Origin: Mobula hypostoma
Lineage: Eukaryota
Direction of reading: 5' to 3'
Assembly: GCF_963921235.1 (NCBI RefSeq)
Contig: NC_086097.1
Coordinates: 109,618,001-109,682,000 of the forward strand
Length of the DNA: 64,000 nucleotides
Shown here: one piece after another, positions 6,101 to 61,229 of the stretch
How positions within the stretch are numbered: the first letter of the stretch is position 1
How the letters are laid out: each line of letters begins with the position of its first letter
Position numbers and translations under genes: made by a program
The notes under the pieces: generated by a model
Seen by the model: only the letters and a program-made list of their open reading frames with translations
Told to the model about the DNA's origin: nothing
Database searches by the model: none

Positions 6101-7190
6101 AACATTACTTCCATTACTCACCATAGATACTGCCAGATCAGTTTCTATTTCAGATTTTCAGCGCTAGCAGCTTTATTTTGGTTTAAGATTACAGAACTAG
6201 CTAATACTTTTAGCAACTCTCACTCATTGTCGGCTCCAATTTGCCACAATGATCCTTCACAGGAAAAATCAAGAACTGATCCTTCTTCCTTTGCAAAAAC
6301 TGTTCCATTTACCACTTCCAATTCCTCTCCAAAGCCTTTGAACATACTGCAGCCTCAAAATTTCCCTGGAAAACCATCCGAATTTCTCTAGTTGAGGTTT
6401 CATCCCATTCAAAAACAATTCAAAGGCATAAATGAAATCCATTGAGACCGTCGCACATGTTTGACAACACTACAATGTCTATTGACTGCAGGGTGTGTGG
6501 GACTGCACTCATCTTATTCCATTCCAAACGATCAAGTTGCTAGAGAATTACCTCTGGTTGTCCTCAAGGGCTCAATCCCTGCCCTGAGATTCCTCATCCA
6601 CAGGCCAATGTTTGTTGATATAATCACAGAGTAGAATGTCAGTTTCTTCACATATGGTATGTAGACAACACCCGTAGCAATTTCCCTTTTGACTCCCTAA
6701 CAGTTTTAATTAGTCGATCTGCCTGTCTAATATCAGCAAGCAGAAACTTACTTCAAGACTAACATCAGCATTATTTAAAATTCTGCTCTGCAGTTGGCAA
6801 CCACATCCATTTTCCAGGCAATTATCTGAAAAGACCTCTACTCTTCACAGTCCTGAACTTTAAAAGTTCAGAACAATTTATCAGTGCCATTTCTGCTCTG
6901 CCCTTTTCTTCTTCCACAGCATCAGCACCTGCAGAAGTTCACCTCTTGTTTTAACTTTCGTTGTTGCTCTACCTTTTGCTACCTTAGGACTTGACCATTG
7001 TAATGTGCTCCTAGTTATCCTCCCTGGCTCTATTGTTTCTCAGCCTGAAGTAACCAAAACATGCTGACCACCATCCTTCCCTACTCACATTCTTTTCATC
7101 CATTGCTACTCCATTTGCTGAGTACTTTTGCTTCCTTATTAAGCTATATGCTTTAATGGAATTAAAGAGAAAAAACAGAAGAAAAGGAAA

Positions 7191-8022
7191 ACAACAGGAA
7201 TTCTGCAGATGCTGGAAATTCAAGCAACACACATCAAAGTTGCTGGTGAATGCAGCAGGCCAAGCAGCATCTCTAGGAAGAGGTACAGTCAACGTTTCAG
7301 GCCGAGACCCTTCGTCAAGACTAACTGAAGGAAGAGTGAGTAAGGGATTTGAAAGCTGGAGGGGGAGGGGGAGATGCAAAATGATAGGAGAAGACAGGAG
7401 AGGGAGGGATAGAGCCGAGAGCTGGACAGGTGATAGGCAAAAGGGGATACGAGAGGATCATGGGACAGGAGGTCCGGGAAGAAAGACGGGGGGGGGGGTG
7501 ACCCAGAGGATGGGCAAGAGCCCCAAACAGTCCTTCCAGGTGAGGCATCACTTCACCTGTTGGAGGAACAGCGCCTTGTATTCCGTCTGGGTAGCCTCCA
7601 ACCTGATGGCATGAACATTGACTTCTCTAACTTCCGCTAGGCCCCACCTCTCCCTCGTACCCCATCTGTACTCATTTTTATGCACACATTCTTTCTCTCA
7701 CTCTCCTTTTTCTCCCTCTGTCTCTCTGAATATACCTCTTGCCCATCCTCTGGGTCACCCCCCCCTCCCCGTCTTTCTTCCCGGACCTCCTGTCCCATGA
7801 TCCTCTCGTATCCCCTTCTGCCTATCACCGGTCCAACTCTCGGCTCCATCCCTCCCCCTCCTGTCTTCTCCTATCATTTTGCATCTCCCCCTCCCCCTCC
7901 AGCTTTCAAATCCCTTACTCACTCTTCCTTCAGTTAGTCCTGACGAAGGGTCTCGGCCTGAAACGTCGACTGTACCTCTTCCTAGAGATGCTGCTTGGCC
8001 TGCTGCGTTCACCAGCAATTTT
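7191..8022. mobile_element. PLE fold-back insertion 2
   Basis: Left arm 7191-7520 is an inverted copy of part of the right arm (~7735-8022). The centre holds GIY-YIG-region fragments. TSD GAAGAAAAGGAAA at 7178-7190 and 8023-8035. Confidence 0.92.
7936..7972 (+). ncRNA. Minimal type I hammerhead ribozyme motif
   Basis: AGTC-CTGACGA-A-GGGTCTCGGCCT-GAAA-CG-TC-GACTG. The inverted copy at 7286-7322 has a mutated core (TTGACGA). Confidence 0.78.
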
Positions 8023-9274
8023 GAAGAAAAGGAAATGTTTTTACTCTGTACTAGAGAACATAGTGATATGGTACAGGAAGTAATCATCCTTGATTAATAT
8101 AAATGTACACACTCATCAGCACAGATAACATAATGGTTAATATGCTGGTCTTGCCAGAGTTCAATTGCTCTAGAGACATAAATCTCCTGATGGCTGCTGG
8201 AGAAGTTAAATTCAAGTACGTAAATAAGGCACTCAGATAAATAATCACAACATGACTGGATTTTCATTAAAAAAAAATTAGGGTAGAAATCTGCCATCCT
8301 TAGCCTGTCTGACCTGTAGATAACTCCAGATCCACAGGTATGACTGACATTTAACTGCATTTTGAATAAATAGGCAGTGTACGAGCTTGTATGTCAATCA
8401 GTTTTCACTGTGAGAACATATTTCACGAGTATAGATGTCAGAAAATTACAGCTCATATTTTTATCTACAGTTTAAGTATCTTGGCCTCACAGGGAAGGGA
8501 GTTCATGGCCTTTCTCCTGTGAGTGAGCAGGAGATGTGCTGCTTTCAGAAGTTCCATTGCATAACTCTTAAAGAAATGGGACAATCTCAGAAAGCGACTC
8601 TGCATGTACATGATGGGTACATCTCAGATGGGAAGTGGGAATGTTTACCAACGTGCTTCAGAGGAACATTTCCAGATACTTTCATGGTCTTTATAATTCC
8701 TTACAGCACCCAGAAACCTTTCCTTCCAATCCTGACCAACTACACAACCCTGATTTTAATAGTTTCACCTAATGCTGCTGAATCCTTACCTCATGGAATT
8801 CTCGCTCTGACTCTCTTCCTTTCTCATCCTTCAGGGTACTTAATGCATCTGTTTTGACTAAACTTTCACTTATCTATCTCAAGATATTTTTTTAGAAACT
8901 GGCTGACAAAACATTTTCACTCTATAAGCAATTGTTTTGCAATGTCACTGTATTCACTATATTACAAATGTCAAGCTCAGAGGTTTTTATATTTGCTGGG
9001 TGGAATGCAGATCTTGGTTTTGAAACTGAAAAATTCACTGAGTTGCTAAAAGTACCCATGTGACCAGTTGAACTCCCACAACAGAGCTCTGAGATATTGG
9101 GAGAAAAAGGGCAGAATGCAGCTATAGACAGGGATTCTAGTTACTCCAAATTTATGATCTACTTCTAAAACACATTGTTAGCCAATGCATGCAGTAATAG
9201 TGCATTGCATTACAAATCGGTAGTGCTTCATAAATGAAGCATTGCTATGTAGTTTTTATTTTATTTTACTTTCT

Positions 9275-21089: not shown

Positions 21090-22270
21090 TCATCATCATC
21101 AGGTGCTGTGCCCAGTTTGAGCTTTGACTGCCATGGCCCACACACTCCGGTTTCGTGTCGTGGATCAATTCATTTGTATTCATTTCCAGTTCTCTGGCTG
21201 TTGTCTCCATCATCTTTTGTCTTTGCCTTCCTCTTGCTTTCTTCCCTTCCACCTTTTCCATAATTACCGTGCATTCTAACTCCTCTTTCCTAATCACATG
21301 TCCAATGAAGTTACGTTGCCTTTTCATGATGTCATTCATTATTTCTCTTTTTGTGTTTGTTCTGTTCATGACATCCTCATTAGATATTTATTTCGTCCAT
21401 GATATTCTTTGCATCCTCCTCAAAAACCACATCTCTGCTGCTTCAATTCTTTTCCTCATGTTACTGGATATTGTCCAACATTTTGAGCCATATAACATAA
21501 CTGGATAAACGTAACGTTTCAGTACTCTGAGGCAGATTGTCATGCCTAGTTTAGTGTTGGTCAGTATACACTTTATTCTCGTAAAGGTGTCTTTTGCCAT
21601 CCCTATTGTTCTTTTGATGTCCATGTCGCATCTGCCATCTGATGTCACCCAGCTTCCTAAGCAGCAAAAGTTCTGTACCTGTACTTGTTTTATGTCTTCC
21701 CCATTTAGTTTCAGCCTGCAGATAGGGTTCTCCTTCTTTTTGGATATCACCATACATTCTGTCTTTTTTGCAATTGACAGATAGACCCATTTTTGAACTT
21801 TCTTCAACAACTATATCAATTAAGTTTTGTAGTTCTTCCTCCATACTTGCAATTAACACAGTGTCATCCGCATATCTTAAATTATTGATGTTTTCACCGC
21901 CAACTTTGATTCCCAAGATGTCTTATTCTTTGTAATATTGTCTCACTGTACGCATTAAACAAGTCAGGGGAGAAAACATACACTTGTCTAACACCTCTCT
22001 TGATTTTCATAACTTGACTCACTTCTCCATCTATTCTTACAGCGGTAGTTTGTTCCCAGTACAGATATCTGATTAGGCGGAGGTCTTTTGAATCTAGGTC
22101 TAGAGTTTCCTGTAATATTTCAAATAACTTATTGTGCTTCACTTTATCAAATGTTTTTGTGTAGTCGATAAAACAAACAAACAAATCTTTTTGCACTCCA
22201 ATTGCTCATTCTGGTAGTATCCTTAACATCAATACCACGTTTCTTGTACCTTTGTCTTTCACAAAACCAC
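21090..22270 (-). mobile_element. RTE-clade LINE, 3' part
   Basis: FVCFIDYTKTFDKV, GENINNLRYADDTVLIA, RIEAAEMWFLRRM, GKVEGKKARGRQR-like C-terminus; (ATG)n tail at ~21090-21100. Confidence 0.9.
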
Positions 22271-23114
22271 ATGCTTATCTACTCTAACCTAACTTACCTA
22301 TTTTAGCCCTCTATTGCTTTCTTATCCGATGTGTTTTTAATGTAACAACAAAATGCTGGAGGAACTTAGCAGGTCAGATGGCATCTATGGAAATGAATTA
22401 ACAGTGGATGTTTCCAGTTGCTTCAGGACTATTAAATGTAATAACATTTGTCTCCACTACTCTCTCTCATTTCACCCTCTGTGTGGAAAAATTTATCCCT
22501 CAGATATGCTTTAAATTTCTCCACTCTTGCCTTAAGTCTGTGCCTTTTAGTCCTAGTGTCCTCTGTCCTGAGGGAAGTTTCTGACCGTCTATCCCATCTT
22601 TGCCTTTCATAATTTGAAAATATCTATAAGGTTGCCATCAGCCTGCCACCTTTCAATGAGAATAAACCCAGCCTATTTCCTCTCTCCTTATAATGACTGC
22701 CCTCAATTTCTGTCAACCAGCCGGTAATTTCACTGGCTGTTTCTCCATTGCTACCATATCCATCCTGTATACAATACTGTACTCTAAATGTGTTCTAACC
22801 AATGAATTAGAATGAACTCCTTCTTTAACATTGCCCTGTCCTTCAACAGATATTGTAAATAGAATTCATCAGGACTCTGGCAGAATCCTTAATATATTTG
22901 TCATCCTTTGTATGATGAACTTTATCATAGCAGTCCTTACATCGTCTTTCATTAAATTTCAAAGATTAACTTTGCCTTTGCATGCAAAATTAGCAAGTAA
23001 ATGAAATAAATAAATTCAAACAACAGGAATTCTGCAGATGCTGGAAATTCAAGCAACATACATCAAAGTTGCTGGTGAACGCAGCAGGCCAGGCAGCATC
23101 TATAGGAAGAGGCG

Positions 23115-23151
23115 CAGTCGACGTTTCAGGCCGAGACCCTTCGTCAGGACT
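23115..23151 (-). ncRNA. Minimal type I hammerhead ribozyme motif (intact)
   Basis: Minus strand reads AGTC-CTGACGA-A-GGGTCTCGGCCT-GAAA-CG-TC-GACTG. Confidence 0.78.
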
Positions 23152-24028
23152 AACTGAAGGAAGAGTGAGTAAGGGATTTGAAAGCTGGAGGGGGAGGGGG
23201 AGATGCAAAATGATAGGAGAAGACAGGAGGGGGAGGGATGGAGCCGAGAGCTGGACAGGTGATAGGCAGAAGGGGATACGAGAGGATCATGGGACAGGAG
23301 GTCCGGGAAGAAAGACGGGGGGGGGGTGACCCAGAGGATGGGCAAGAGGTATATTCAGAGGGACAGAGGGAGAAAAAGGAGAGTGAGAGAAAGAATGTGT
23401 GCATTAAAAAGAGTAACAGATGGGGTACGAGGGGGAGGTGGGGCCTAGCGGAAGTTAGAGAAGTCAATGTTCATGCCATCAGGTTGGAGGCTACCCAGAC
23501 GGAATATAAGGTGTTGTTCCTCCAACCTGAGTGTGGCTTCATCTTTACAGTAGAGGAGGCCGTGGATAGACATGTCAGAATGTCAGAATGTCTATTCCCA
23601 TTCTGACATGTCTATCCACGGCCTCCTCTACTGTAAAGATGAAGCCACACTCAGGTTGGAGGAACAACACCTTATATTCCGTCTGGGTAGCCTCCAACCT
23701 GATGGCATGAACATTGACTTCTCTAACTTCCGCTAGGCCCCACCTCCCCCTCGTACCCCATCTGTTACTCTTTTTAATGCACACATTCTTTCTCTCACTC
23801 TCCTTTTTCTCCCTCTGTCCCTCTGAATATACCTCTTGCCCATCCTCTGGGTCACCCCCCCCCGTCTTTCTTCCCGGACCTCCTGTCCCATGATCCTCTC
23901 GTATCCCCTTCTGCCTATCACCTGTCCAGCTCTCGGCTCCATCCCTCCCCCTCCTGTCTTCTCCTATCATTTTGCATCTCCCCCTCCCCCTCCAGCTTTC
24001 AAATCCCTTACTCACTCTTCCTTCAGTT

Positions 24029-24065
24029 AGTCCTGACGAAGGGTCTCGGCCTGAAACGTCGACTG
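24029..24065 (+). ncRNA. Minimal type I hammerhead ribozyme motif (intact)
   Basis: AGTC-CTGACGA-A-GGGTCTCGGCCT-GAAA-CG-TC-GACTG. Confidence 0.78.
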
Positions 24066-24143
24066 CGCCTCTTCCTATAGATGCTGCCTGGCCTGCTGCG
24101 TTCACCAGCAACTTTGATGTATGTTGCCTGAAATAAATAAATT

Positions 24144-24650
24144 ATTCTGATTCCTATTCCCATTCTGACATATTGCACCATGGCCTCCACTTGCGTCACA
24201 CTGAGGCCACCCTCAGCGTGGAGGCACAACATCTTGTATTCTGTATGGATGGCTGCCATCCTGATGGCATGAATATCAAATTCTCCTTCTGTTAAAAAAA
24301 AATTCCTTCCTTCCCTCCCCTCTTCCTCTTCTCCACGCGTTGACCTTTGACTACTTTTCACCTGCCTATCACTTTCCCCTGGGTCCCCTCCTCCTTCCTT
24401 TTCTCCTATGGTCCACTCTCCTCTCCTATTGGATTCCTTCTCCAGCGCTTGACCTTTCCCACCCACCTGGCTTCACCTATCACCTTCCAGCTAGCCTCCT
24501 TCCCCTTCCCCCAATCTTTTTATTCTGGTATCTTCCCCCTTCCTTCTCAGCTCTGAAGAAGGCTCTCAGTTGGAAGCATCGACTATCTATCCATTTCCAT
24601 AGATGCTGCCCAGTCTGCTGAGTTCCTCCAGCATTTTGTGTGTGTTGCTT
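24144..24650 (+). mobile_element. Older PLE subfamily 3' fragment (GIY-YIG C-terminus plus terminal region)
   Basis: Homologous to 35620-36190 (cctgatggcatgaatatc); degenerate hammerhead at ~24548-24585. Confidence 0.8.
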
Positions 24651-29059: not shown

Positions 29060-30336
29060 AAGCAACAGGTCTACAGCAGATGCCTTCTCATTGGCTCTTC
29101 ACACAACCCTAGAACATCTGGACAGCAAAGATGCATACATCAGGATGTTCTTTTTCGATTGCAGCTCAGCTTTTAATACCATCATCCCCTCAAAACTAGT
29201 CAGTAAACTCAAAGATTGAGACCTCAATATCCCCTTGTGCAATTGGATTCTGGCTTTTCTCACTTGTAGACGCCAGTCAGTTTGGATTGGCAAAAACATC
29301 TCCACAATCTCCATCAGCGCAGGAGCAGTGCAGATGTGTGTACTTAGCCCCCTGCTCTACTTGCTTTACACCAATGATTGTGTGGCCAAGTACAGTTTCA
29401 ACTCCATATACACCACTGTTGCTGATGACACTACTGTTGTAGGCTGTGTCAAAGGTGGTGATGAATCAGCACACAGGAGGGAGGCTGAAAATTTGGCTAG
29501 GTGGTGTAATAACAACAACCTCTCACTCAGTGTCAATAAAACCAAGGAGCTGATTGTAGACTTCAGGAGAGGGGAGCCAGAGGTCCATGAGCCAGTAATC
29601 ATTGGCGGATCAGAGGTGGAGAGGGTCAGTAACTTTAAATTCCAGGTGTCACTCGCTCAGAGGATCTGTCCTGGACCACCATGTAAATATAATTGTAAGG
29701 AGAGTATGGCAGCACCTCTACTTCCTCAGGAGTCTATGGAGATTTGGCATGGCCTCAAAAACCTTGCCAAACTTCTACAGATACGTGGTGGAAAGTGTGC
29801 TGACAGGCTGCATTACAGCCTGTTATGGGAACACCAATGCCTTTGAGTGGAAAATCCTACAAAAGGTAGTGGATTCATTCATCATGGGTAAAACCCACCC
29901 AACCATTGAGCACATCTACATGAAACATTGCTGTAAGAAAGCAGCATCAATCATCAAAGATCCTCACCAACCAGGCAAAGCTCTTTTGTCGCTACTGCCA
30001 TCAGATAGAAGGTACAAGTACCTCAGGACTGGCACTACCAGGTTCAAGTACATTTACTATCCCTTAACTATCAGGCTCTTGAACAAGAATAACTACAGTC
30101 ATCCTACTTCTGGTGTTTCCACAATCAATGGTCTCATTTTAAGGACTCTTTACCCTGTTACTTCATATCCTTTATTTATTGCTATTTATTTACTTTTGCA
30201 TTTACAGTTTGTTTTCTGCTGATCCTGTTTACAGTAACTGTTCTATAGATTTGCTTAAGTAGGCCCGCAGAAAAGAATCTCAGTGTTGTATGTGATGACA
30301 TGTATGTACTCTGATAATGAATTTTACTTCGAACTT
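29060..30336 (+). mobile_element. Rex1/Babar LINE RT and C-terminus
   Basis: CNWILAFLT, CVLSPLLY, VADDTTVVG, KTKELIVDFRR, VESVLTGCITACYGN; frameshifted; cgaactttg tail. Confidence 0.9.
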
Positions 30337-33978: not shown

Positions 33979-36199
33979 AAGGGAGGTGCTGTTGTAGTCT
34001 GGCGTACTGACCTCTACCTTGCCGAAGCACAGCGACAACTCGCGGATACCTCCTCTTATTTGCCCCTCAATCGTGACCCCACTAAGGAGCACCAGGCCAT
34101 TGTCTCCCATACCATCACCGACTTTATCCGCTCAGAGGATCTCCCATCCACTGCTACCAACCTTATAGTTCCCACACCTGGCACTTCCCTTTTCTACCTC
34201 CTACCCAAGATCCACAAACCTGCCTGTCCTGGCCGACCTATTGTCTCAGCTTGCTCTTGCCCCACCGAACTCGTTTCTGCATACCTCAACACGGTTTTAT
34301 CCCCCCTTGTTCAATCCCTTCTTGCCTACTTTCGTGACACTTCTCACGCTCTTAAACTTTTCAATGATTTTAAGTTCCCTGGTCCCCACCGCTTTATTTT
34401 TACCATGGATGTCCAGTCCCTATATACTTCCATCCCCCATCAGGAAGGTCTCAGAGCTCTCCACTTCTTTTTGGATTCCAGACCTAATCAGTTCCCCTCT
34501 ACCACCACTCTGCTCCGTCTAGTGTAATTAGTCCTTACTCTTAATAATTTCTCCTTTTGCTCCTCCCACTTCCTCCAAACTAAAGATGTAGCTATGGGCA
34601 CCCGTATGGGTCCTAGCTATGCCTGTCTTTTTGTTGGCTTCATGAAACAATCTATGTTCCAAACCTATTCTGGCATCTGTCCCCCACTTTTCCTTCGCTA
34701 CATTGACAACTGCATTGGCGCTGCTTCCTGCACGCATGCTGAGCTCGTTGACTTCATTAACTTTGCCTCCAACTTTCACCCTGCCCTCAAGCTTACCTGG
34801 TCCATTTCCGACACCTCCCTCCCCTTTCTAGATCTTTCTGTTTCCATCTCTGGAGACAGCTTATCTACTGATGTCTACTATAAGCCTACTGACCCTCACA
34901 GCTATCTGGACTATTCCTCTTCTCACCCTGTCGCTTGCAAAAATGCCATCCCCTTCCCTCAATTCCTCCGTCTCCATTGCATCTGCTCTCAGGATGAGGC
35001 TTTTCATTCCAGGACGAGGGAGATGTCCTCCTTTTTTAAAGAACGGGGCTTCCCTTCCTCCACCATCAACTCTGTTCTCAAATGCATCTCCCCCATTTCA
35101 CGTACATCTGCTCTCACTCCATCCTCCCGTCACCCCACCAGGAATAGGGTTCCCCTGGTCCTCACCTACCACCCCACCAGCCTCCGGGTCCAACATATTA
35201 TTCTCCGTAACTTCCGCCACCTCCAACGGGATCCCACCACTAAGCACATCTTCCTCCCCTCCCTCTCTCTGCTTTCCGCAGGGATCGCTCCCTACGTGAC
35301 TCCCTTGTCCATTCGTCCCCCCCATTCCTCCCCACTGATCTCCCTCCTGGCAGTTATCCGTGTAAGCGGAACAAGTGCTACACATGCCCTTACACTTCCT
35401 CCCTTACCACTTTCAAGGTCCCAGACAATCCTTCCAGGTGAGGCAACACTTCACCTGTGAGTCGGCTGGTGTGATATACTGCGTCCGGTGCTCCCGATGT
35501 GGCCTTCTATATATTGGCAAGACCCGACGCAGACTGGGAGATCATTTTGCTGAACACCTATGCTCTGTCCGCCAGAGAAAGCAGGATCTCCCAGTGGCCA
35601 CACATTTTAATTCCACATCCCATTCCCATTCTGATATGTCTATCCACGGCCTCCTCTACTGTAAAGATGAAACCACACTCAGGTTGGAGGAACAATACCT
35701 TATATTCCGTCTGGGTAGCCTCCAACCTGATGGCATGAACATTGACTTCTCTAACTTCCGCTAATGCCCCACTTCCCCCTTGTACCCCATCCGATATTTA
35801 TTTATATACACACATTCCTTCTCTCTCTCTACTTTTTCTCCCTCTATCCCTCTGACTATACCCCTTGCCCATCCTCTGGGTTTTTCCCCCCCTCCCCCTT
35901 TTCTTTCTCCCTGGGCCTCCTGCCCCATGATCCTCTCATATCCCTTTTGCCTATCACCTGTCCAGCTCTTGGCTCCATCCCTCCCCCTCCTGTCTTCTCC
36001 TATCATTTTGGATCTCCCCTTCCCCCTTTCCACTTTCAAATCTCTTACTAGCTCTTCCTTCAGTTAGTCCTGATGAAGGGTCTTGGCCCGAAACGTCAAC
36101 TGTACCTCTTCCTAGAGATGCTGCCTGGCCTGCTGCGTTCACCAGCAACTTTGATGTGTGTTGCTTGAATTTCCAGCATCTGCAGAATTCCTCGTGTTT
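33979..36199 (+). mobile_element. Penelope-like retroelement (Neptune-type), 5'-truncated: RT, Cys linker, GIY-YIG endonuclease, terminal region; inactivated
   Basis: KGGAVVVW, FYLLPKIHK, TMDVQSLYTSIP, MGTRMGPSYA, LRYIDN, linker CKRNKCYTC, VIYCVRCSRCGLLYIGKT..RLGDHFAEH. Premature stop at 34525-34527 and frameshifts near 35260 and 35420. Confidence 0.93.
36066..36102 (+). ncRNA. Minimal type I hammerhead ribozyme motif downstream of PLE ORF
   Basis: AGTC-CTGATGA-A-GGGTCTTGGCCC-GAAA-CG-TC-AACTG, with one stem I mismatch. Confidence 0.72.
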
Positions 36200-37068
36200 A
36201 CAAGAATGTTGCTGGGTCTGGAGGACGTGCGTTATATGGAAAGACTGAATAGGTTAGGACTTCATTCCTTGAAGGTTGAGAGGAGATTTGATAGAGGTAT
36301 ACAAAATGATGAGGGGTATAGATAGGGTAAATGCAAGCAGTCTTTTTACACTGAGTGGGACTACAACTAGAGGTCATCAGTTAAGGGTGAAAATTTTTAA
36401 GGGGAACATGAGGGGAACAAGGATTCCTTGTCTCATATGTTTGATATTCATTATGTATTTATTTATTATTATTATTATTGCTTTTTTTTTTCTCTTTTTG
36501 CGTTCGGACAGTTTGTTGTCCTTTGCACACTGGTTGATTTGTTTCAGTCTTTCGTTAATTCTATTATGGTCATTATTCTATGGAATTATTGAGTATGCCC
36601 ACAAGAAAATGAATCTCAGGATTGTATATGGTGATATATATTTACTTTGATAATAAAATTTACTTTGATTCAGAATTCAGAAATTCAGAATCACAGAAAC
36701 GTCTGTGGTGGGTAAGTGGCCATGCATGTGAAAGGCAGTCACTAGTCAGCCTCGCTGACTCTGTCAGTGAGCAGTTGTGTCTCCTTAGTACTACCCACTC
36801 TGCGTGGTTTGACCCAGCCCTTGATTGTTGCAGTTCCATTGTGGGCCATGTGTGGGGGTAGGGAAAGAAGACCCACAGAAATACCCCATTCCCACCCAGT
36901 GGAAGACACCTGTATGCACACAATAGCTGGTAAATCCATCCACATCTATCCTGTCAGTGTCACAAGGGCTTATTCATATATATGGGATGTCTATAAGTCA
37001 CGAGTTTGTAATCTGGGGAGGACTTGTAGGTGTTGATAACTCTTTTGTAAAAAGGTTATACATAATCC

Positions 37069-50654: not shown

Positions 50655-52135
50655 TAGATGCTCCGCTATATAGGAGACCACACCATGAGCACCAAACGCA
50701 GTAAAAGACCCCAACAGACTCACCGGTGAAGTGTCACCTCATCTGGAAGGACTGTTTGGGGCCCTGAATGGTAGTGAGGGAGGAGATGAAGGGGTAAGTG
50801 TAGCACTTATTCCACTTGCCAGGGTAAGTGTCAAGAGGGAGATCAGTGGAGAGGGATGAATGGACAAGGTAGTCGTGTAGGAAATGATCCCTGCAGAAAG
50901 CAGAAAGTGGGGGGGGGAGAGAAAGATGTGCTTGGTGGTGGGATCCCATTGGAGATGGCAGAAGTTACGGAGAATTATGTGCTGGATGTGGAGGCTAGCG
51001 GGTGGTAGGTAAGGACAAGAGGAACCATATCCCTGGTGGGATGGCGGGAGGATGGAGTGAGGACAGACACGTGCGAAGTAGAAGAGATGCGGTTGAGGGC
51101 AGCGTTGATGGTGGAGGAAGTGAAGCCCCATTCTTTGAAGGAGGACATCTCCTTCGCTCTGGAATGAAAAGCCTCATCCTGAGAGCAGATGCAATGGAAA
51201 CAGAGGAATTGAGAGAAAGGGATGACGTTTTTACAAGTGACAGTGTGGGAATAAGTATAATTCAGGCATCTGTGAGAGTCCGTGGATTTATAGTAGACAT
51301 CGGTGGATAAGCTGTCTCCAGAGATAGAGACAGAAAGATCAAGAAAGGGGAGGGAGATGTTGGAAATGGACCAGGTAAATTTGAGGGCAGGGTAGAAGTT
51401 GGAGGCAAAGTTGATGAAGTTTGTCAACTCCCTTGTTGGGGTCCATTGGGGTCATATATTGTGTCTGGTGCTCCCAGTGTGGCCTCCTGTAGTATCGGTG
51501 AGACCCAACGTAGATTGGGAGACTACCTACGTAGATTGGGAGAACACCTACACTCCATCTGCTAGAAAAAGCAAGATCTCCCAGTGGACACCCATTTTAA
51601 TTCCACTTCCCATTCTGTTATGTCCTTCCATGGCCTCCTCTACTGTGGTGATGAGGCCATCGAAGGACATAACAGAATGTTATAAGCAACACCTTATATT
51701 CCGTCTGTGTAGCCTCCAATCTGATGGCATGAACATCGTTTTCTCGAACTTCCAGTAATGGCCCGCCCTCTCCTTCACCATTCCTCATCCCCTTTTCCCT
51801 CTCTCACCTTATCTCCTTGCCTACACATCACTTTCCTCTGGTGCTCCTCCCCCTTTCTTTTTCTTCCCTGGCCTTCTGTTCTCTCCTATCAGACTCTCCC
51901 TTCTCCAGCCCTGTATCTCTTTTAGCAATCAACTCCCTAGCTCTGTACTTCACCCCTCCCCCCCCAGCTTCACCTATCACATTGTCTTTCTCCTTCCCCT
52001 CCCCTCACCTTTTAACTCCGACGTCATCTTTTTTCTCCAGTCCTGTTGAAGGGTCTCGGCCTGAAACATCGACTGTACTCTTTTCCACAGATACTGCCTG
52101 GCCTGCTGAGTTCCTCCAGCAGTTTGTCTGTGTTT
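50655..52135. mobile_element. Older PLE copy with inverted 5' half
   Basis: 50655-51430 on the minus strand encodes RT thumb and linker (NFINFASNF..LPFLDL..DVYYK). 51440-52135 on the plus strand encodes GIY-YIG and the terminus, with a hammerhead-like motif at 52038-52075. Confidence 0.88.
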
Positions 52136-55576: not shown

Positions 55577-58500
55577 AGAGTCATAAAGTCATAGAAAACT
55601 ATACCACAGAAACAGACCTTTCCGCCCATCTGGTCTGTGATGAAACATTTAAACTGCCCAGTCCCATCGACCTGAAGCAGGACCATAGCCCTCCATTCCC
55701 CTACTATCCAGGTACCCATCTAAACTTCTCTTAAACATTGAAACCGAGTTCGCACCTACCACCTGCTCTGGCAGCTCATTCAACACTCCCACCACCCTCT
55801 GAGAGAAAAAGTCTCCCATCATGTTCCCCTTAAACATTTCATTTTTCACCCTTAAAGCATGACCTCTAGATGTAGTCTTTCCTAACCTCAGTGGAAGACG
55901 CCTGCATGCATTTACTCTATTGGTACCCCTCATCATTTTGTATACCTCTATTAAATCTCCGCTCCAAGTTCTACATTCCAGGGAATAAAGTTCTAACCTA
56001 TTGAATATTTCCTTAAAACTCAGGTCTTCCAGCCCTGGCAACATTCTTGTAAATTTTCTCTGAACTATTTCAAACTTATTTACATCTTTCCTGTAGGTAG
56101 GTGACTAAGAATGCAAACAATACTCCAAATTAGGCCTCACCAATGTCTTATACAACTTGAAAATAACATGTTACTACTCCCGTGCTCAATGCTTTTGTAA
56201 TGGCTTCTCTGTGAGGTTAACTGCTAAGGCTTATGTAATGGCTTCTCTGTAATGTTAATTGATGAGGTAATGGTAGCAGCAATGTTTGGGTTATAACTAG
56301 AGATGACGGGTGGCTACCCAATGGGAGAAATGCTATTCTTTCTTGTGTGTCTGGGAGCCAGGATTTTTTGCGGGCTTTCGTCGAGGAGAAGAGAAGAGGG
56401 AGGATGCATGTGGAGAGCACTGGTAGACCACCGGATGGTGCATACTGGAATCCGAGGATCCGAGGGTCGGCGACGTTTCGGCAGAGATCATTGGTGGAGG
56501 AATACCTGCTGAGTGAGCTCCGACTGATACTGGGACTTTAACTTTGGGCCCTTTCATTGTTTTGTTTATTTTCATACTAACCCTATATTCAGATTAAGAT
56601 TCATAAAGTCTATCATTTGATTGTATCTGGTGTACTGTCTGATATCTTGCATTGTGGGTTCGAGAACGGGGGCACATTACACAGCATCCACCCAAACTTG
56701 AATACCCTGTTTGGCGGGGCCAAAAGCTGGTTCGCCTAGATGAACATGAGCAGGCGAGCCTGGTGGGTTACACTTTGATTTGTGAAGATCAATGTGCCAG
56801 AAGTTTTCTTTATGATCCTATCTACCTGTGACACCACTTTCAATGAATTATGGACCTGTATTCCCAGATCCCTTTGTTCTACCGCACTCCTCAGTAACCT
56901 GCTGTTCACTGTTTAACACTGACTCTGGTTGGTCTTCCCAAAAGGGCAAAACATCACATTTGTCTTCATTTTCAGATCATTTTTCCAGCTGGTCCAGATC
57001 CCGCTACAAGCTTTGATAGCCTTCTACACTGTCCAATACATGCCCAATCTTCATGTCATTCACAAATTTGCTGAACCAATTAACCACATTATCATCCAGA
57101 TCATTGATATACTGTAGAGGACAAACAACAATAGACCCAGCATCCCTGTGGCTGTCCACTGGTAACAGGCCTTCAGTCAGAGAGTCAATCATCTACTACT
57201 GTACCACCCTTCGGCTTCTCCCACAAAGTCAATGTCCAATACAATTTACTCATCTTGAAAGCCAAGTAACTGAACCTTCTTAACCAACCTCCCATGCAGG
57301 ACCTTGTCAAATGCCTTACTGAAGTCCATGTAGACAACATCCACTGCCTTGCCTTCATCAATTTTCCTGGTAGCTTCCTTGAAAAACTCTGTAAGATTGT
57401 TTAGAATGTCCTATCATGCACAATAAAGCTATGCTGACTATTCTTAATCAGTACTTGTCAATCCAAATACCTATATCTCCCATCCCTTAGAATGCCTTCC
57501 AATAACTTTCCCACTACAGACGTCAGGCTCACCAACCTACAGTTTTCTGGCTTTTCTTCGAGCTTTTCTTAAACTTCAGAACAACGTTAGCTATCCTCCA
57601 ATTCTCCAGTACCTCACCTGTCGCTAAGGATGATTTAAATATCTCTGCCAGGGCCAGGGCAATTTCTTCACTTGCCTCCCACAGAGTCCGAGGGAACATC
57701 TTGTCAGACCCTGGGGCATCCACCACACTAATTTGCTTCAAAACAGCAAACATCTCCTCCTCTGTAATCTATATAGGGCCCAGACATTGCCACTGCGTTG
57801 CCTCACTTCTATAGACTGTGTGTCATCTCCCAAGTAAATACAGATGCAAAAGATCCATTCGAGATTTCCCCATCTCCTTTGGCTCCATGCATAGATTATC
57901 ATTCTGATTTTCCAGAGGATCAATTTAGTCCCTTGTTATCCTTTTGCTCTTTACATATCTATAGAAGCCCTTGGGATTTTCCTTCACCTTGTCTGCTAGA
58001 GCAACTTCATGCCTTCTCTTAGCCCTCTTGATTTCTTCCTTAAGTGCTCTCTTGCATTTCTTATGCTCCTCAAGTATCTCATTTGTTCCTACCTGCCTAT
58101 ACCTGCTATGTACCTCTCAATAACCAAAGTTTGCTAAACCTGTTATCCTTAACTTTTATTTTGACAGGCACATACAAGTTTTGTACTCTCAAAATTTCAC
58201 TTATGAAGGCCTCTCACTTAGAAGTACACCTTTGCCAAAAAACAGCCTGTCCCAGATCCTTTCTGATACCATCAAAATTGTCCTTTCTCCAATTTTGAAA
58301 CACAATCTGAGGACCAGAACTATCTTTTTTGCATATTTATTTGAAAGTAATGGCATTATGAACACTAGATGCAAAGTGTTCCCCTACACAAACTTCTGTC
58401 ACCTTCCCTGTCTCATTCCCGAACAGCAGCTGAAGTATCGCATTCTCTCTTGTTGGGACTTCTATGTACTGATTAAGAAAACTTTCCTGAACACATTTTA

Positions 58501-60200
58501 TAAACTCTATCCCATCTAGTCCTTTTACAGTACGGGATTCCCAGTCAATACGTGGTAAGTTAAAATCACCTACTATAACAACATTATGTTTCTTGCAACA
58601 GTTTACGATCTCTCTACAAATTTGTTCCTCAAAATTTCCTGGACTGTTGGGTGGTTATAATATATCCCCATTAATACCTTTTCATATTCCTCAGTTCAGC
58701 CCATAGGACCTCACTAGATGAGTTCTCCAGTCTGTCCTGACTGAGCACTGCTGTGACATTTTCCCTGACTAGTAACGTCACCCCTTCCCCTTCAATTCCT
58801 CCCACTCTATCACTAAAGCAAAAGAACTCTGAAATATTGACCCGCTACTTCTGCCCCTCCTGCAACCAAGTCTCACTAATGGCTCCAAAATCAGAATTCC
58901 ATATGCTGATCCATGCCCTGAGATCAGCTACCTTTCCTACAATACTTCTTGCATTGAAATATACACAGCTCAGAACATTAGCCCCACCATGCTTAACTTT
59001 TCGATTCCTGACTTCTTTGTATGTAGGCTTAACAATATCTTTCCCCACAACCCCACTCCACTATCTATCTGCTCTGGCACTCTGGTTCCCATCGCTCTGC
59101 AACTCATTTAACCTCACCCCCCCTTCTCCCCATGCAGCACTCACAAACCTTCCCTCAAGGATACTAGTCCCCCTCCAATTCAGATACAGACCATTGCATC
59201 TATACAGGTCCCACCTTCCCTGGAAGAGAGCCCAATGATCCAAAAATCTGATGCCCTCCCTCCTACACCAACTCATTAGTCACATGTTAAACTGTATAAT
59301 CTTCCTACTTCTGGCCTCACTAGCACGTGGCATGGGTAACAATCCTGAGATCACAACCCTGGAGGTCCTATCCTTTAACTCAGTACCTAACTCCCTGAAC
59401 TTGTTTTGCAGAATCTTGTTCTCTTCCTACCTCAAGTTCAAAGTTCAAAGTCCATATATTATCAAAGTACGTGTGTTATCAACCTTGAGATACGTTTCCT
59501 TGCAGACATTACCTCTGTCATTTGGACCAATATGGACTACGACCTCTGGTTGCTCACTCTCTCACTTAAAAATGCTGAGGACTCACTCCAAGATATCCTG
59601 GACCCTGCCACCCAGGAGGCAACATATCATTAGGGAATCTTGTTCTCATCCGCAAAACCTTCTTCCTGTTCCCCTAACTAATAAATCGCCTATTCTCCTT
59701 CCTTCCCTTCTGAGCCACAGAGCCAAACTTAGTGCCAGAGACCGGACCACTGTGACTTCCCTCTGCTAGGTCATCCTTCCCAACAGTATCCAAAGAGATA
59801 TACCTGTTGTTGAGGGGGACGGCTACAGAGGTACTCTGCACTGGCTGTTTCACCCGCCTGACTGTCACCCAGTTTCCTATGCTCCTCACCTTGGGTGTAA
59901 CTCCCTCTCTATATGTCCTCTCTATGATCCCCTCACCATCTCAAATAATCCAGACTTCATCCAGTTCCAGCTCCATCTCCTTAATGCAGAGTATTTGAAG
60001 CTGCAGCTGGATGCACATCTTGCAGATTAAGTCATCTAGGGCACTGGAGGTCTCCTTGCCTTCCCACATCTCTCAAGAGGAACATTGAACTATTTTATGT
60101 GGCATCCCTACCATCCTAACTGTGCAATTGTAAAGAAGGGAACAATAAATTAACTGGAAAAAATCTACTCCCAGCGTTTCTCCTTCTCTCGCTGAAGCCT
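55577..60200 (-). mobile_element. Long decayed CR1 LINE: ORF1 (SGNH esterase-like), ORF2 endonuclease and RT, 3' UTR
   Basis: WCRREGIRFLDHWALFQGRWDLY..GLYLNWRGT (ORF1); CVYFNARSIVGK..AISETWL; APGSDKMFPRTL; YINDLDDNVVNWFSKF; GDLIEVYKMMRG. Confidence 0.9.
56196..56772 (+). mobile_element. Solo LTR inserted in CR1
   Basis: TGTAA...TTACA termini; 4-bp TSD CTTT (56192-56195, 56773-56776); CR1 sequence is continuous on both sides. Confidence 0.85.
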
Positions 60201-60369: not shown

Positions 60370-61229
60370 CAGTGGCATTCAAAAGTTTGGTACCCCAGTC
60401 AAAATTTCTGTTACTGTGAATAGCCAAATGAGTAAAAGATGAACTGATTTCCAAAAGGCATAAAGTTAAAGATGACACATTTCTTTAATATTTTAAACAA
60501 GAAAACTTTTTTATTTCCATCTTTTATAGTTTCAAAATAACAAAAAAGGAAAAGGGCACGAAGCAAAAGTTTGGGCACCCTCCATGGTCAGTACTTAGTA
60601 ACACCCCCTTTGGCAAGTATCACAGCTTGTAAACACTTTTTGTAGCCAGCTAATAGTCTTTCAATTCTTGTTTGGGGGATTTTCGCCCATTCTGCCTTGC
60701 AAAAGGCTTCTAGTTCTGTGAGATTCTTGGGCTGTCTTGCATGCACTGCTCTTTTGAGGTCTATCCACAGATTCTCTATGACGTTTAGGTCAGGGGACTG
60801 TGAGGGCCATGGCAAAACCTTCAGCTTGTGCCTCTTGAGGTAGTCCATTGTGGATTTTGAGGTGTGTTTAAGATCATTATCCTGTTGTAGAAACCATCCA
60901 CTTTTCATCTTCAGCTTTTTTACAGACGGTGTGATGTTTGCTTCCAGAATTTGCTGGTGTTTAATTGAATTCATTCTTCCCTCTACCAGTAAATGTTCCC
61001 CGTGCCTCTGGCTGCAACACAAGCCCAAAGCATGATCGATCTATCCCTGTGCTTAACAGTTGGAGAGGGGTTCTTTTCATGAAGTTCTGCACCCTTTTTT
61101 CTCCAAACATACCTTTGCTCATTGCGGCCAAAATGTTCTATTCAACGGGTTCAAAGGAACATCTAAACAAGCCTGATGTATTTGGGAATCAAGTCCTATG
61201 GACTGATGAAGTTAAAATAGAACTTTTTG
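60370..61229 (-). mobile_element. Tc1 (DD34E) DNA transposon, one end plus catalytic-domain remnant
   Basis: TA then CAGTGGCATTCAAAAGTTTGG; inner repeat CAAAAGTTTGGGCACCC at ~60564-60580; ORF 60588-61028 with QQDNDLKH..WPSQSPDLNVIENLW (34 residues between D and E). Confidence 0.9.

Follow-up and report, generated by a model that had tools for sequence, protein, structure and literature searches.

A recent head-to-head insertion of two truncated Penelope-like element copies within one target-site duplication, probably primed from both target strands

The window analyzed here is the whole 64-kb stretch of DNA, and all positions refer to it. Positions 23017–24128 hold a single insertion consisting of two 5′-truncated copies of a Penelope-like element (PLE), arranged head-to-head and enclosed by a 15-bp target-site duplication (TSD). 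The TSD had been proposed in an earlier note on this sequence, and the 15-mer TGAAATAAATAAATT indeed has exactly two matches in the window, at 23002–23016 and 24129–24143. The left arm lies on the reverse strand and starts with a 36-nt tail (23017–23052), the long 3′ end of the element, which the right arm lacks; the rest of this arm extends to 23582 (from 23053). The right arm, on the forward strand, occupies 23594–24127, with its ORF stop codon at 23734–23736, and ends at the short 3′ end. With element position 0 set at this short end (24127) and negative numbers lying further 5′ in the element, the left arm spans −530 to +36 and the right arm −535 to 0, followed by one additional C (24128, forward strand). 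Neither arm contains an intact ORF; each holds the last endonuclease codons, the 3′ UTR/pLTR and a hammerhead motif.

The near-identity of the arms, said in the earlier note to be about 530 bp long, is borne out: 23048–23582 and 23599–24132 are reverse-complementary at 99.6% across 535 columns, the exceptions being a single indel within a poly-C run and a mismatch at 24128. The element arms have 0 substitutions in 529 columns and no rare allele in common. The 16-nt loop between the aligned arms comprises an 11-nt insert (23583–23593), in which 8 nt repeat the preceding TCAGAATG and TCT follows, and 5 nt (23594–23598) that belong to the element sequence of the right arm. The spacer had been read as a set of locally templated pieces, which holds for the insert and needs correcting for these 5 nt. 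Variants common to both arms were also described correctly, but they are subfamily alleles and not private to the locus: the genome (G000) contains 2,098 exact matches to the 66-nt stretch in which they lie. The C after the short end is probably untemplated; an origin as a template variant was judged unlikely, with 24 genomic copies carrying C at this place and 10,550 carrying T. The central junction has only one match in the whole genome. A MITE or other self-propagating fold-back element, which needs many copies with the same centre and ends, was rejected on this count, as was the junction as an amplified unit.

Contigs from organism A span both outer junctions (22352–23036 and 24105–24289) with 0 differences, and a contig from organism B joins 22360–23001 directly to 24129–24289. 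The latter is an orthologous empty site with a single TSD copy, the check that the earlier note had set, and it differs from the window flank at 19 of 803 letters. Both contig results rest on the aligned pieces, other copies of the element having swamped the depth, variant and joint tables. Together, the TSD and the empty site show that the two-armed insert is one event, as had been claimed, and the insertion is real and recent. An assembly fold-back is unlikely because the arms differ in their 3′ ends, the loop is non-palindromic and an indel separates the arms.

The target flank contains an older PLE relic (24154–24294, forward strand, ~75% identity), which is present at the empty site, and a further relic of ~69% identity lies to the right of the target site at 24441–24650. 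Eighteen nucleotides across the centre of the insert (23592–23609) are identical to 24154–24171, the start of the nearer relic, 10 nt past the right TSD, and the match includes two bases absent from the active element. This relic may have bridged the join and fixed its symmetry; an alternative parsing takes the two bases from the arm. Among the 53 loci compared, no other has a flank match of at least 10 nt to its junction, and flank-templated junctions were discarded as a general rule (1/53).

On sequence grounds, the element is a very abundant PLE of the Neptune/Nematis type, with a unit of ~3.5 kb encoding a reverse transcriptase (RT) followed C-terminally by a GIY-YIG endonuclease. Longer copies, 98–100% identical to the arm, match RVT_1 (E = 1.8e-5) and GIY-YIG (E = 4.6e-4), both below the Pfam cut-off, and their translations contain DKG and CxxC-YIG motifs. 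They also contain CKRNKCYTC, a CX4CxxC motif in the RT-EN linker. A CX2-5CxxC linker motif is given in sections of PMC8557442 as a mark of Neptune/Nematis that is absent in Penelope/Poseidon, and the label Poseidon was ruled out for the element on this basis. The partial-tandem layout that forms pLTRs is seen in one copy with a period of 3,510 nt and an 807-nt direct repeat (L191) and in three tandem pairs spaced 3,513–3,517 nt apart; in tandem copies the tail continues into the ORF, running on as …GTTTG in L140 and L142. Exact matches across the genome number 24,555 for a 40-nt tail pattern and 6,598 for a short-end pattern.

A hammerhead ribozyme had been placed on each strand by the earlier note. 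At 24029–24064 (forward strand, right arm), a CUGANGA/GAAA core and stems of a minimal type-I motif can be read by eye against the description in parts of PMC4209133, with a predicted cut after 24060; the left-arm counterpart lies at 23116–23151 (reverse strand). These motifs are putative: Rfam at E ≤ 1 yielded no hammerhead match in the locus sequence. Generic hairpin matches in Rfam (miRNA, viral elements) were all far below the gathering score and were discounted as due to the palindrome. Minimum-energy folds of the motif do not adopt a hammerhead either, and both outcomes are expected because such motifs need a dimer or a protein, according to the same parts of PMC4209133. The metazoan pLTR hammerheads described there likewise have the CUGANGA/GAAA core, a minimal palindromic helix III and a pLTR location; here, in contrast, the two putative copies lie on opposite strands and could not form a tandem dimer in one transcript. 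A role for the hammerhead cut as the turn or truncation point is unsupported, as the cut is predicted at about −67 and the 5′ ends of arms peak elsewhere, with 56 of 152 clustering at −115 to −85 (window ~24012–24042). Near this cluster are TCACTC and TCAGTT, which we take to be initiator-like motifs. RNA initiated within the pLTR could have given rise to the miniature inserts as run-off copies. Both hammerheads would be passengers of the pLTR.

The window also holds other mobile elements. A second head-to-head PLE insert at 7178–8035 has a 13-bp TSD, a tail confined to its left arm and, at its junction, ~40 nt from the interior of the element; this junction is unique in the genome. There is also a miniature inverted pair at ~263–508 (arm matches 263–350 and 375–463) and, at 34590–36200 and ~51000–52120, a longer 5′-truncated copy with a tail (~90% identity) and older rearranged copies. 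Fragments of DDE transposase and of LINE endonuclease and RT occur at 60591–61040 and 58340–58654 (both reverse strand) and at 1246–1515, 21554–22205 and 29220–29843.

The earlier note overrated the rarity of the layout. The count of TSD-flanked inverted pairs that it proposed was made on the first 100 exact-tail matches on C1 (11 Mb of one chromosome); 97 were used, after L068 (the second end of L067) and two internal pLTRs (L140 and L142) were dropped. Head-to-head inversion is the commonest layout among these tail-bearing loci: 55 of the 97 have an inverted partner and 42 are single-armed. TSDs of at least 10 nt flank 49 of the 55 inverted loci (13–15 nt in 42 of these) and 27 of the 42 single-armed copies, and TSDs are 69% AT. 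The partner arm also carries a tail in only one of the 55 pairs, and that pair has no TSD. Starting from short ends, 19 loci were sampled of 59 planned, and two proved to be tailed point variants; among the 17 true short-end loci, the inverted partner is tailed in nine, an internal piece in two, absent in six and short-ended in none. Short inverted stubs were not evident by eye at the 48 junctions of single-armed, “solo” copies inspected. Counts of junction microhomology (at least 2 nt in 10 of 53; apparent inserts in 37) were set aside as unreliable, given that mismatches inflate the gaps.

Tail-arm ends fall at +33 to +43 in all 48 cases. Partner-arm ends fall at −3 to +2 in 28 of 45, with two longer, three more unplaceable, and 15 shorter, the last speaking against a sharp short site. 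At the other extremity, 50 simple pairs can be compared: 21 have a short-end arm that extends 5′ of its partner by over 15 nt, another 21 have arms ending within 15 nt of each other, and eight have a longer tail arm; the excess of longer short-end arms has a sign-test p of 0.024. Some pairs are non-nested by hundreds of nucleotides, as at L097 (−9/−865) and L095 (−134/−822). The lengths of paired arms are correlated (Spearman 0.77), in part an effect of the many miniature inserts.

Across 55 pairs drawn from the tail, short-end and window loci, the two arms carry the same allele at 254 of 284 non-CpG diagnostic sites, where 166 would be expected, and have 11 rare alleles in common (1.1 expected). 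This suggests that the arms come mostly from one template source, but a single template per pair is not universal: among 25 pairs with at least four diagnostic sites, six differ at two or more. The sharing of alleles could also be explained by one subfamily being active at a time, or by gene conversion between the arms.

Several junctions in the sample have their own peculiarities. L067 and L078 (C1:399820 and 1824719) have the same central junction, found exactly twice in the genome, 1.4 Mb apart, in opposite orientation and with different flanks; the same holds for L105 and L125 (C1:3842166 and 5740649), 1.9 Mb apart. A fold-back re-copied locally, or a palindrome centre subject to gene conversion, could explain such recurrence. 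L067 and L078 are, despite their common junction, no more alike than background (2.4%), which gives no support to a donor-progeny relationship. At L100 and L147 the junction turns an imperfect hairpin on the 5′ side of the hammerhead into a palindrome; this junction has 205 genome matches, with the tail on either arm. At L007 and L010 (C40:47.91 Mb), a short-ended copy adjoins an inverted piece of the same element, twice, ~3.9 kb apart, possibly through insertion into its own kind followed by duplication.

The head-to-head layout is already published, and this locus adds one more case. Endonuclease-bearing PLEs typically have inverted truncated copies, a TSD around the whole insert and a tail at a single end, as sections of PMC3846280, PMC8557442 and PMC2377424 describe; Pen2a_Av (PMC3846280), the structures in Fig. 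2 of PMC8557442 and Penelope of D. virilis (PMC2377424) likewise have a head-to-head inverted 5′-truncated copy, one TSD and a one-ended tail of 30–40 bp. Here, unlike in the inverted-pLTR PLEs of those sections, both arms are cut to ~530 nt, are nearly symmetric and lack an intact ORF. The features behind tandem and inverted PLE structures are called “still undefined” in part of PMC8557442. A biochemical parallel comes from purified Poseidon protein of Anolis, a predicted dimer that, in the excerpted results of PMC11167929, cuts and extends both target strands in vitro and starts at two RNA sites bounding the tail. That system, too, has two preferred 3′ ends ~35 nt apart downstream of the hammerhead, AT-rich targets and extension of both strands, but it belongs to a different clade, the element studied here having a CX4CxxC linker. 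The same excerpts of PMC11167929 contain no discussion of inverted insertions or TSDs.

We consider it probable, at roughly 70%, that the insertion arose by double priming, in which both 3′ ends of a staggered cut prime on element RNA at two start sites and the products are end-joined centrally. The element protein, probably acting as a pair, would nick the two strands ~14–15 nt apart and leave 3′ overhangs. Sense element RNA would then be reverse-transcribed from each 3′ end, with one start at the tail site (+36) and the other at the short site (0); both starts would usually draw on RNA from a single source. Both cDNAs would halt after ~530 nt; because their ends have the same polarity and cannot anneal, they would be joined by error-prone end-joining, giving the 11-nt locally templated insert, and fill-in would create the TSD. 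L1 twin priming is comparable in that both target strands prime on element RNA and an inversion arises within one TSD, but it copies two non-overlapping parts of the RNA, whereas here the same 3′ region would be copied twice, which yields a palindrome.

In 21 of the 50 simple pairs of the census, derivation of one arm from the other is impossible in either direction, because the tail is confined to one arm and the other extends further 5′. We therefore infer that each arm of those pairs was copied from RNA, which excludes fold-back or self-priming for them; and as the 3′ ends point outward inside the TSD, both 3′ overhangs of a ~14-nt staggered cut would have served as primers. The scarcity of tail/tail and short/short pairs further suggests an ordered assignment of the two start sites. 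Priming from both strands with a central join, which the earlier note had put forward, is thus the best-supported model; at this locus the arms are non-nested by only 5 nt, of which 2 can be parsed as insert, so that fold-back may still apply here. Also against it, the other 29 of the 50 simple pairs do not discriminate, 42 of the 97 loci are single-armed in a sample limited to 11 Mb of one chromosome, and the element in the excerpts of PMC11167929 is of Poseidon type and has no start-site difference between strands, leaving the one-tail rule unpredicted. A literature search found no paper proposing a two-primer model for PLE inversions, though older reviews or supplements may have one; a 2026 retrozyme preprint has nothing on it in the portion available.

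The published account of inverted pLTRs is self-priming or endonuclease resolution, as given in parts of the literature cited above, and the census favours two primers. In the fold-back form, a tail-primed cDNA would snap back at its 3′ end, copy itself to near the tail and join the other target end; in a variant put forward in a section of PMC3846280, which holds the published self-priming interpretation, an antisense RNA is self-primed. At this locus, the absence of substitutions in 529 columns, the near symmetry of the arms, and the GACATGTC palindrome and templated bits at the centre all agree with fold-back. So do the excess of symmetric pairs (4 of 17 larger pairs symmetric within 20 nt, 0.75 expected, p = 0.003) and the 205 recurrences of the hairpin-based junction. 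Fold-back requires, however, that the second arm be nested in the first, which those 21 pairs violate, and at this locus the right arm extends over 5 more bases that match the element and ends exactly at the common short site. We regard it as unlikely, though still worth weighing.

A pre-existing inverted master is improbable. Read-through RNA over an older head-to-head element would be reverse-transcribed once from its tail, carrying the junction along, and the two junctions found exactly twice each with different flanks show that re-copying or conversion can happen. The junction of this locus is nevertheless unique in the genome, as are two others tested, and a master merely moves the question of origin one step back.

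There is only a slight chance that the locus is a functional, selected source of hairpin or ribozyme RNA, such as a small-RNA source or an editing substrate. As the earlier note anticipated for transcription of either strand, a hairpin forms in silico: either strand folds into a stem of 535 bp (about −1176 kcal/mol) in which 23116–23151 pairs with 24029–24064. Read-through RNA would pair each hammerhead with the opposite arm and so mask the ribozymes. Small RNAs from PLE copies are reported in rotifers, in a section of PMC3846280. Yet the insert is young, being absent from a relative whose flank differs at those 19 of 803 bases, and it is one among thousands of similar inserts. The 140 longest stop-to-stop frames of at least 80 aa in the window outside four PLE copies contained no host exon (short exons escape such a search), and their domains are transposon-type only, plus two weak ALKBH8_N matches. 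Nothing points to function at this locus. Least credible is that the arms inserted independently of each other or that the assembly folded back on itself. In favour are the high density of the family (24,555 exact tails) and the absence of the central junction among the contig matches listed. Against these readings, a single TSD encloses both arms, the empty site and the contigs over both outer junctions exist, the two 3′ ends differ, the loop is non-palindromic, a 1-nt indel separates the arms and, by eye, the first 100 subfamily matches include 11 head-to-head and 0 tail-to-tail pairs within 10 kb.

More tentatively, and with less than even odds, the protein pair may read one RNA twice, starting at the short site on one strand and at the tail site 36 nt behind it on the opposite strand, displacing the first cDNA. 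If this is true, the one-ended tail and the head-to-head palindrome would be the footprint of one ordered double-priming reaction, which would replace the self-priming account, and long perfect palindromes would be a routine product of PLEs, numbering thousands in a vertebrate genome. Three predictions for the in vitro system already available come from the restriction of the tail to one arm, from the arms that are not nested and from the alleles held in common. As a locus this one is ordinary, and it is of value as a clean example, with an empty site, a TSD and undiverged arms, among tens of thousands of copies. If the proportion of 55 in 97 holds genome-wide, the ~24,500 exact tails would extrapolate to more than 10,000 head-to-head inserts, and at such numbers these inserts could supply much dsRNA and many unstable palindromes.
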